Source: a virus (Duplodnaviria > Heunggongvirae > Uroviricota > Caudoviricetes). Taken from it: a DNA stretch of 27,887 bases. Under the pieces are notes generated by a model. It made no database searches and was not told the origin of the DNA. It saw nothing but the letters and a program-made list of their open reading frames with translations. The stretch is taken from IMG/VR virus record IMGVR_UViG_2585427725_000003. One strand, given 5' to 3'. Shown piece by piece: positions 8,086-10,952 of this stretch. The position numbers were made by a program, and so were the translations under genes. Within the stretch, counting starts at the first letter, position 1, and the number at the start of each line of letters is the position of its first letter.

Positions 8086-8160
8086 GGGTCAGTCGTATAA
8101 AGGTCATTACGGAAGGCTGTTAACCTTCTTATCGTGGTTCGAGTCCACGCTGTCCCGCCA
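8086..8160 (+). tRNA. tRNA-like gene, anticodon GTT (Asn), 75 nt, slightly non-canonical
   Basis: Hand-folded cloverleaf: acceptor GGGTCAG/CTGTCCC (one U-U mismatch), perfect anticodon stem GAAGG/CCTTC with loop CTGTTAA, T-arm CGTGG-TTCGAGT-CCACG, discriminator G plus CCA. D-stem only 3 bp. Confidence 0.55.
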
Positions 8161-8165
8161 AATAT

Positions 8166-8241
8166 GCTGGTTTAGCTCCAATGGTAGAGCGGTCGCCTTG
8201 TAAGCGAATGGGTAGCGGTTCAAGTCCGTTAACCAGCACCA
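8166..8241 (+). tRNA. tRNA-Thr (anticodon TGT), 76 nt
   Basis: Hand-folded: acceptor GCTGGTT/AACCAGC (7/7), D-arm GCTC-CAATGGTA-GAGC, anticodon loop CTTGTAA, T-arm AGCGG-TTCAAGT-CCGTT, discriminator A plus CCA. Confidence 0.75.
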
Positions 8242-9072: not shown

Positions 9073-9506
9073 GTAGAGTAACCGTGATTATCTCCGCTCT
9101 GGTTATCTGCATCATCGTCTGCCTGTCATGGGCTGTTAATCATTACCGTGATAACGCCATGACCTACAAAGAACAGCGCGATAAAGCCACATCCATCATC
9201 GCTGATATGCAGAAGCGTCAACGTGATGTAGCAGAACTCGACGCAAGATATACAAAGGAACTTGCTGATGCTAACGCGACTATCGAAAGTCTCCGTGCTG
9301 ATGTTTCTGCTGGGCGTAAGCGCCTGCAAGTCGCCGCCACCTGTGCAAAGTCAACGACCGGAGCCAGCAGCATGGGCGATGGAGAAAGCCCAAGACTTAC
9401 AGCAGATGCTGAACTCAATTATTACCGTCTCCGAAGTGGAATCGACAGGATAACCGCGCAGGTTAACTACTTGCAGGAATACATCAGGACGCAATGCCTT
9501 CGATGA
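9069..9506 (+). CDS. Rz: Rz (inner-membrane spanin)
   Basis: ATG at 9069 overlapping the R stop (ATGA): [26 protein letters not shown]..., N-terminal TM segment then coiled-coil-like region. Confidence 0.85.
9268..9453 (+). CDS. Rz1: Rz1 (outer-membrane lipoprotein spanin) embedded in the +1 frame of Rz
   Basis: ATG at 9268 after AAAGGAA: [36 protein letters not shown]..., lipobox LGVSAC and Pro-rich mature part, entirely inside Rz. Confidence 0.8.
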
Positions 9507-9948
9507 TAGCGATAATTTTACTCATCATCCTTCACATCTGGCTCTGTAGACAGGGTGGTGATCACTTCTGGAGTGAATCCAGATTAAACATCTCATTGCT
9601 GATGCTTGAAGTTGAGCATCTGGCGCGCGGTAAGGGGCTGCGTTGAGATAAGAGCCAGTTCATTACAAAGCCTATCTACGGGTGGGCTTGATAATGAAAC
9701 CGGAATTTATTCTGGGCAACCAGTTACGGCAGTACAGCGAAACAACCCAAGCCAGTAAGTGGGGAAATAACACTGGCAGCCACTGAAAGATGAACCTCCA
9801 GCCTTATGGCAAAAAAGATTCTTTGTGGTGGCGGACTGATGGAAAGACATCGGTTATTGCAGAGACCATTCAATGAGTGGTCTCGACAATGGCTTATATC
9901 CTGCTAAGAGTGATTAACTGGGTGGCAAAAGTTCACCACCAACATCAA

Positions 9949-10380
9949 TTAGATTAAATTATTTCGATAAGCAGAATCGATTAGAGCGTTCATAAAGAGA
10001 TACTCAACATCTTCGGTATAGTCGATGTCTATTGGAGCTGTTGAGTCAAGCGCCCCAAAATGCATGCAATTGTTCCAATCAAGAAAAATTTTATGAAACT
10101 CCTGTTTTTTTCCATCTCGCGATGTGTAAAAAGTAATAACCCCAATTAATGAGCCTTCGTGAAGTGAAAGCTTACTTTCTGTAAAACACTTAAAGCGTAG
10201 CTGTGGAATTGAAACCTCAAGCTCTCCATCATTTAGCTCTATGGAAATTTGCTTATTAAGGTCTCGTTTGTTATTCCATGCGGTGTTAACACGTTCTAAT
10301 AAATCATTCGTATTTTGCTGTAATAACTCACCTTTCCTAGAAAGTAACTGTGACAATCCGATAAACGTTAATGAGCTCAT
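9949..10380 (-). CDS. Hypothetical protein (143 aa), antisense to the late operon between Rz and terminase (bor-like moron position)
   Basis: Minus-strand ATG at 10380 preceded by AAAGGTGA: MSSLTFIGLSQLLSRKGELLQQNTNDLLERVNTAWNNKRDLNKQISIELNDGELEVSIPQLRF... No motif I recognise. Noticeably AT-rich by eye. The track ORF extends to 10407 but that start lacks an RBS. Confidence 0.6.
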   Translation of the reverse strand: MSSLTFIGLSQLLSRKGELLQQNTNDLLERVNTAWNNKRDLNKQISIELNDGELEVSIPQLRFKCFTESKLSLHEGSLIGVITFYTSRDGKKQEFHKIFLDWNNCMHFGALDSTAPIDIDYTEDVEYLFMNALIDSAYRNNLI

Positions 10381-10400
10381 AAATTCACCTTTGAGAAAAA

Positions 10401-10952
10401 ATGGCACTCACAGACAAGCAAGAGATGTTCTGTCGCGAGTACCTCATCGATTTAAACGCCACGCAAGCGGCTATTCGGGCGGGGTACAGCGCAAAAACAG
10501 CCAACCGTACCGCATCCGAAAACCTGTCAAAACCTGACATCAAGTTAAGAATCGCCGAACTGAAAGCGCAACGCAATGATCTTGTTGGTATTAATGCAGA
10601 ATATGTACTTAATCGCCTTATTGAAATCGACCAGATGGATGTGCTTGACATTCTCCTGCAAAACGGTGAGCTAAAACCCATTAAAGACTGGCCTAAGGTA
10701 TGGCGCACAACGTTATCAGGAATGGATGTCGTGGAGATGGCATCCGCAGATAGCGCCGCACTTCTGAAGAAAATCAAATGGCCTGATAAGGTTAAAAACC
10801 TTGAGTTGCTCGGGCGTCATGTTTCTGTTCAGGCGTTTAAAGACAATGTCAAAAATGAAGTGACTGGTGCTGACGGAGGACCAGTCAGAACAGAAATTAC
10901 CAACTTAACGCCGGAGCAGGTTGCAGAAGCGTATAGAAAAATGATGGGCTAA
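10401..10952 (+). CDS. Terminase small subunit (P27-family-like)
   Basis: Track ORF, 183 aa, [34 protein letters not shown]..., a typical TerS N-terminus. Immediately precedes terL. Confidence 0.78.

Follow-up and report, generated by a model that had tools for sequence, protein, structure and literature searches.

A single-gene moron cassette in a divergent slot abutting the small terminase gene of Enterobacterales temperate phages

Between the lysis cassette and the small terminase gene (terS) of a lambdoid prophage is an antisense gene, here called the cargo gene, which is the sole gene of a cassette of ~500 bp in a fixed divergent slot of Enterobacterales temperate phages. It is an exchangeable moron cassette, variably present at the same map position and distinct in base composition. 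Its product founds a small uncharacterised family of 143–147 amino acids, for which a role as a lysogeny-expressed, non-enzymatic binder in defence or exclusion is our preferred but tentative reading, with a probability of about 40%. The prophage lies within the 27,887-nt stretch of DNA that was analysed, referred to here as the window (IMG/VR record IMGVR_UViG_2585427725_000003, Caudoviricetes).

A divergent cargo slot at the terS start codon

The cargo gene faces a late operon running on the plus strand, the annotation of which was taken from the 98%-identical locus of E. coli SCU-301 (L001). The prophage has a lambda-type cIII region, as the Rfam model Lambda_thermo (cIII thermoregulator RNA) matches at 940–998 on the minus strand with 88.5 bits. 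The layout of the late region is as follows.

8086–8160, tRNA-Asn(GTT), between the Q antiterminator gene and the holin gene, at the start of the late transcript
8166–8241, tRNA-Thr(TGT), between the same two genes, at the start of the late transcript
Holin 8360, lysozyme 8575, Rz 9057, terS 10401, terL 10955 and portal 12577, plus strand, late genes (ORF list; annotation of L001)
9904–10400, single-gene cassette of ~497 bp, bounded by the conserved post-Rz backbone and by the start codon of terS
9949–10380, minus strand, cargo gene, 143 amino acids (ORF and start codon, homologues, dN/dS, model)
10381–10400, spacer of 20 nt, with AAAGGTGA for the cargo gene (minus strand, 10385–10392) and GAGAA for terS (plus strand, 10393–10397)
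10401–10952, plus strand, terS of the Terminase_2 (PF03592) type, 183 amino acids (L001 annotation, Pfam calls in homologous loci, junction mapping)

In the ORF list the gene extends over 9949–10407 on the minus strand, with 152 amino acids from a GTG codon; the start in all homologues is the in-frame ATG at 10380, giving 143 amino acids (MSSLTF...), and the ribosome-binding site lies 4 nt before it. The GC content of the ORF is 35.9% (GC3 33%), versus 50.1% for the window. The preliminary description of the locus was accurate in these respects: it had listed a 143-residue minus-strand ORF with a good Shine–Dalgarno sequence, AT-rich by eye, starting 20 bp from the start of terS, antisense to late transcription and placed in a bor-like slot between the lysis cassette and the terminase genes.

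At all loci of close homologues the gene and a Terminase_2 terS diverge across a gap of exactly 20 nt, and the terL, portal and head modules vary among these loci. The DNA that they have in common with the window comprises the ORF and the 5′ part of terS only (9911/9970 to 10654/10843). Loci with more divergent cargo retain the arrangement.

Cronobacter phage ES2: gap to terS 20 nt; identity to the window, cargo 20%, terS 70%
L179: gap to terS 21 nt; identity to the window, cargo 36%, terS 63%
L051: gap to terS 14 nt; identity to the window, cargo 23%, terS 65%
L176: gap to terS 21 nt; identity to the window, cargo 32%, terS 71%

Overall, identity to the window is anywhere from 20 to 84% for the cargo and stays within 63–80% for terS; cargo and terS have independent histories.

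Among 160 sampled loci that encode a terS of this type, 80 from species genomes and 80 from IMG/VR contigs, the family is found in eight, and in each of these it is divergent from and adjacent to terS. When any divergent ORF of at least 45 amino acids starting no more than 70 nt from the terS ATG is counted, one is present in 75 of 77 usable viral (IMG/VR) loci and in 46 of 76 genome loci, mostly at a gap of 14–30 nt. Across the viral and Enterobacterales genome loci (L017–L176) these ORFs make up about 30 unrelated families; singleton ORFs in GC-rich, non-enterobacterial loci look spurious. With only 8 of 160 loci carrying the family and unrelated genes at the same position in others, the tight linkage to terS is attributable to the slot and not to the protein. 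Among complete E. coli genomes the gene is carried by 7 of 5,426, and carriers are gut and clinical Enterobacteriaceae; that it is an accessory gene, as initially proposed, is borne out by both counts and by the unrelated divergent genes found elsewhere.

The right boundary of the slot is sharp: mapped against the window, homology resumes at 10393–10401 in nearly all viral loci. The left junction varies (9902, ~9855, 9669, 9499, 9185 and others), with inserts of 377–2,900 bp. Nine IMG/VR loci in which other cargo is found match the window up to 9902 (or 9904) on the left and again from 10393–10401 on the right; loci carrying the family share homology from 9911/9970 onward. Serving as one left arm of the slot is the post-Rz segment 9494–9903, which holds a plus-strand ORF of 50 amino acids (9494–9646) and is 96–98% identical in ~190 phage records of the P22-like, HK620, Sf6 and epsilon34 types. 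These records match the window only up to ~9903. The slot is not described in the lateral-transduction paper.

Back-to-back Shine–Dalgarno sequences in a CTCC..GGAG-like layout, often palindromic, are found in nearly all of 53 distinct cassette spacers (for example, TCTCCATGGAGG and CCTTAAGG; the window spacer is CACCTTTGAGAA). The spacer belongs to the exchangeable cassette and not to the conserved terS arm. As it holds both Shine–Dalgarno sequences, each cassette supplies the ribosome-binding site of terS as well as its own.

Two sets of other cargo proteins were searched. Ten proteins starting beside terS matched, in Pfam, only DUF2158, DUF2441 (weakly) and CxxCxxCC, and matched nothing in PADLOC; ten larger proteins of the region between Rz and terS included proteases, one PADLOC candidate and one weak HEPN-like match. 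As these 20 proteins gave few defence matches, the slot is not demonstrably a defence hotspot. The PADLOC candidate is a trypsin-like protease matching PDC-S45 (E = 6e-100; L114, L116, L120 and L121), encoded by a sense-strand ORF of 294 amino acids ~650–1,530 nt upstream of terS and scanned as 266 amino acids from an internal start. A second Trypsin_2 protein and a ClpP-like protein are encoded in the Rz–terS region of other sister phages. A weakly HEPN-like protein is likewise encoded in this region, as are Rha-like genes, which were named from related-phage annotation and sequence resemblance.

The protein family and its predicted fold

The window protein has the same sequence as the ‘hypothetical protein’ WP_000097127.1, encoded at a 100%-identical locus in E. 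coli SCU-301. This exact sequence is present on 385 contigs and is hypothetical in every annotation; the literature search found no paper naming WP_000097127. A search of 5.8 billion proteins returned 15 close clusters from Escherichia, Enterobacter, Citrobacter and Klebsiella, at 68–99% identity and every one of 143 amino acids. Exhaustive phmmer over 1.84 billion representatives gave only 11 matches, including proteins of 143–147 amino acids at 22–36% identity, and a profile search added a few further distant members; the most distant full-length homologues are ~20% identical. In tblastn against 50,697 phage genomes the window protein and the relatives P0023 and P0017 found no match, and P0025 found only Cronobacter phage ES2. 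The ES2 member, AEM24710.1 (L016, 6501–6935), is labelled ‘transcriptional regulator’ in GenBank, a label that we reject, as the model contains no helix-turn-helix and the sequence lends it no support.

The dN/dS ratio (Nei–Gojobori) is 0.12 between the window and Citrobacter genes and 0.18 between L002 and L005, with synonymous sites saturated in more distant orthologue pairs. These ratios show purifying selection on a genuine protein-coding gene and, with full-length homologues extending to ~20% identity, rule out a chance ORF.

Searches with the window protein against Pfam, PHROGs, NCBIfam and PADLOC gave no match, the sole Pfam line being DUF6861 at E = 0.32. Its 27 family relatives had no match in Pfam and only scattered noise at E > 1e-3 in PADLOC. 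The preliminary description had recognised no motif in the protein, and the homology and structure searches agree, having matched no known family and no structural or housekeeping phage protein. The Gifsy defence protein GiPD474 was considered and set aside, being an ATPase unrelated to the window protein.

Conserved positions across the family are confined to the hydrophobic core (L13, L20, P59, F63, F84, A137 and I143), and the family alignment contains no conserved polar or catalytic residues. Because no polar residue is conserved, the window protein is most likely a non-enzymatic binding protein rather than an enzyme. From its sequence (pI ~5–5.8, GRAVY −0.31, no predicted signal peptide or transmembrane segment) it is expected to be soluble, mildly acidic and cytoplasmic. 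A role as a DNA mimic was rejected, the protein being merely mildly acidic. Its N terminus, MSSLTFIGLSQLLSRKGELL, contains neither a cysteine nor a hydrophobic signal sequence and so provides no lipobox; the protein is not Bor-like, as had been judged initially.

Modelling with AlphaFold reached a pLDDT of 78.5 with 16 close sequences, and a pLDDT of 90.3 and pTM of 0.85 with 27 sequences including distant ones, all five models agreeing. The model comprises a 32-residue helix (residues 6–37), six antiparallel strands (46–108) and a C-terminal helix (125–139), with a loop bearing the subfamily motif ID.DY; the predicted fold is a generic two-layer α/β sandwich of helix, six-stranded sheet and helix. 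The model gives no sign of homology to a characterised structural family, and Foldseek against the PDB returned nothing significant (best E = 0.24). Frataxin/CyaY entries appear there at E = 0.8–1.1 with a TM-score of at most 0.43. To these and to the folds of type-III-secretion chaperones (CesT/SycT-like) the likeness is weak and at the level of topology (identity 7–15%), and the 32-residue N-terminal helix is far longer than in either fold. Neither Pfam Frataxin_Cyay nor a Pfam chaperone family of this kind has a match in the window protein or the 27 relatives, and the PDB profile search returns no frataxin. That search (family profile A3) did return the plant LRR receptor kinases ERL1 and BIR2 (E ~1e-4, residues 41–90), which is probably an artefact of leucine spacing, since residues 41–90 are modelled as β-sheet and not as a solenoid. 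Just one structural neighbour is convincing, the uncharacterised, 151-residue A0A873WDE3 of Burkholderia phage Mana (Foldseek probability 1.00, TM-score 0.74/0.71 over 149 columns, identity 10%).

Some family members lie elsewhere. In a Klebsiella prophage the member occupies the same inter-module region, also antisense, with a second antisense gene separating it from terS; in an Enterobacter HK97-like phage (HNH, Terminase_4) it is the one closest to the lysis genes among four consecutive antisense genes. Outside late operons, members adjoin RnlA/RnlB-like genes and a HEPN/RES protein (L015), Abi_2 or PemK with an AbiEi-like helix-turn-helix protein (L177 and L178) and Fic (L180). By guilt by association, these neighbours suggest, but do not prove, a link of the family to conflict systems. 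In all four of these elements, which may be satellite-like, the family member is at the edge of a variable region; L015 and L180 have on the other side a conserved block encoding TMP_3-domain and DUF5681 proteins, to which L015 adds a P4-alpha-type primase.

Transcription signals and the 5′ end of terS

Owing to the 20-nt gap, a dedicated promoter must overlap terS if the cargo gene has its own transcript. Candidate signals on either side of the gene are listed here.

10530–10504, minus strand, best sigma-70-like candidate, TTGACA-N15-TACGGT (PWM scan)
10397–10405, minus strand, extended −10-like candidate TGcCATTTT, overlapping the terS ATG (by eye only)
10431–10451, low synonymous variation in terS nt 31–51 (TGT CGC GAG TAC CTC ATC GAT; third-position entropy)
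9921–9940, minus strand, 8-bp hairpin 9 nt downstream of the cargo stop codon, with no U tract
9862–9884, 7-bp hairpin in the conserved post-Rz backbone, likewise with no U tract

No promoter passes a sigma-70 consensus scan of 9400–10900. The best candidate, TTGACA-N15-TACGGT, has a PWM score of 10.0 versus 8.6 ± 1.65 for the best match in shuffles, within one standard deviation, and is kept in 55 of 99 unique sequences. The initial placement of the promoter inside the terS 5′ coding region gained no support from these scans. In two distant members located away from terS (L010 and L012), an ATGTCA-N17-TATTGT motif is found just upstream, in an alignment read by eye, which lends some plausibility to a dedicated promoter.

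The first 30 residues of TerS are invariant among six diverse sequences compared. Within the corresponding DNA, terS nt 31–51 has an entropy of 0.10–0.23 at four two-fold codons versus 0.4–1.0 nearby (80 unique 5′ ends), and could hold an embedded signal, be it an antisense promoter element, a pac or TerS-binding site, or an RNA structure. Relics of the same region are found in elements without this terS, at ~80% DNA identity and with the start codon destroyed. That in L015 (7798–7976) retains terS nt 3–181 upstream of the cargo gene, beside the RnlA/RnlB-like pair; that in L012 (7251–7308), an HNH/Terminase_4 phage, is a minimal relic of terS nt 4–62 before a different cargo gene, and nt 31–51 fall within it. 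A promoter inside terS gains indirect support from the persistence of terS 5′ relics upstream of cargo where terS is gone. Together, the synonymous dip and the relics point tentatively to a functional element within the initial ~60 nt of terS; they could equally be explained by a pac or TerS-binding site and recombination scars.

At the other end of the gene, a terminator scan found no canonical intrinsic terminator. The RNA fold of 9840–9960 (minus strand) has a free energy of −33.8 kcal/mol (z = −3.67 versus shuffles), and the hairpin at 9921–9940 may be a 3′-end or stability element of the cargo transcript.

Possible functions and comparison with known systems

In our preferred reading, leftward transcription of the cargo gene would start within the 5′ end of terS or overlap it. 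The lysogen would thus produce the protein, and production would stop at induction, as Q-antiterminated late transcription would then meet the cargo gene head-on and pair with its mRNA. The protein would act by stoichiometric binding of another protein and not by catalysis, with the prophage most likely excluding other phages or satellites or defending against them in this way, and the very divergent alleles would reflect different target specificities. A conflict role is favoured by the toxin, Abi and Fic-type neighbours of the relatives outside late operons and by the PDC-S45 match, the second trypsin-like protease and the weakly HEPN-like protein of the Rz–terS region in sister phages. Speaking against the reading are the scans, which found neither a consensus promoter nor an intrinsic terminator, and the lack of any PADLOC match above noise for the window protein or its 27 relatives. 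‘Defence or host interaction’, as the preliminary description put it, is a guess with positional support only. A bolder and improbable extension is that the first 60–180 nt of terS act as a recombination arm and an antisense promoter or leader, forming a docking site for one-gene cassettes in which the back-to-back ribosome-binding sites couple cargo and terS oppositely, cargo being on in lysogeny and off at induction through head-on transcription and an RNA duplex; the 143-residue family would then be a single-protein anti-phage or anti-satellite factor with allele-specific targets.

A small binder could instead serve counter-defence, neutralising a host or prophage immune system rather than defending the lysogen. 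We consider this unlikely: an antisense position in the late operon, far from the early region, ill suits immediate early expression, structural similarities are at noise level, and the relatives sit beside toxin and Abi genes like cargo of the same kind.

That the gene is a moron for host physiology or virulence, a functional analogue of lambda Bor conferring a trait unrelated to phages, is very unlikely. Its map position and orientation are those of bor in the lambda gene order, its AT-rich composition is that of horizontally acquired DNA, and its carriers are of gut and clinical origin; however, the protein is predicted to stay in the cytoplasm, lacks a signal peptide, a lipobox and a transmembrane segment and resembles no virulence family, and the neighbours of its relatives are of toxin–antitoxin and Abi type, not virulence genes.

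Highly improbable is a packaging accessory that binds TerS or the pac region and tunes or blocks packaging by its own phage, rivals or satellites. Such a function would explain why the gene stays beside the half of terS encoding the DNA-binding N terminus: all close and several 20–36% identical homologues start 14–21 nt (20 in most) from a terS of the Terminase_2 type, with terL, portal and head genes that differ, the common DNA block is limited to the ORF and the terS 5′ part, and relatives belong to elements outside phage late operons that may be satellite-like, one of which retains a relic of the terS 5′ end. Against it, 152 of the 160 terS loci lack the family, unrelated genes take the same position, and other members are in Terminase_4 and HNH phages or split from terS by another gene. 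An obligatory partnership with TerS was rejected on the same eight-locus count.

A non-functional ORF, whether a chance antisense frame or a decaying remnant, might account for annotation never going beyond ‘hypothetical’ and for the lack of a recognisable promoter or terminator, but it is effectively refuted by the dN/dS of 0.12–0.18 with saturated synonymous change, a constant length of 143–147 amino acids across genera, a model that is confident and self-consistent once distant homologues are included, and the exact sequence on 385 contigs.

Returning to the preferred reading of a lysogeny-expressed binder, the cargo gene itself is one more uncharacterised prophage moron, and prophage cargo in hotspots is of an already known kind. 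The family has a confident structure model and no annotation, and its genomic context gives good reason to include it, at little cost, in screens for defence and anti-defence. More is to be gained from the slot, which has a sharp boundary and a locked orientation at the start codon of terS and takes ~30 unrelated, mostly unknown families in 160 loci. It could be mined systematically, like the P2 and P4 hotspots, and offers a simple test bed for antisense coupling between lysogeny-expressed cargo and the first packaging gene.

The closest positional parallel is bor of lambda, which encodes a lipoprotein of lysogenic conversion and lies antisense to the late operon, with Rz on one side and cos/nu1 on the other. 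Like bor, the window cargo follows the lysis cassette and precedes the terminase genes, and is antisense, accessory and compositionally distinct. Bor is a secreted lipoprotein with a lipobox, whereas the window protein is predicted to be cytoplasmic, is unrelated in sequence and has no match to Pfam Lambda_Bor. Unlike bor, the slot in the window is anchored precisely on the start codon of terS.

The defence hotspots of P2 and P4 are reportedly fixed sites in temperate phages at which many unrelated cargo genes alternate between conserved flanks. The terS slot shares with them the alternation of unrelated cargo between conserved flanks in similar genomes. It differs in phage group and position, in cargo that is strictly divergent and mostly 14–30 nt from terS, and in that very little of this cargo matches known defence models.

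A precedent for reciprocal control of antisense genes within phage operons comes from phages of S. aureus, where ‘noncontiguous operons’ (ith/tha in 80alpha) were shown experimentally within the lysogeny (cI) operon (Rostol et al. 2024; PMC11087260). In the window we infer the architecture, and the nested gene faces the late operon instead; by analogy, cargo and late genes may be under reciprocal control here as well.
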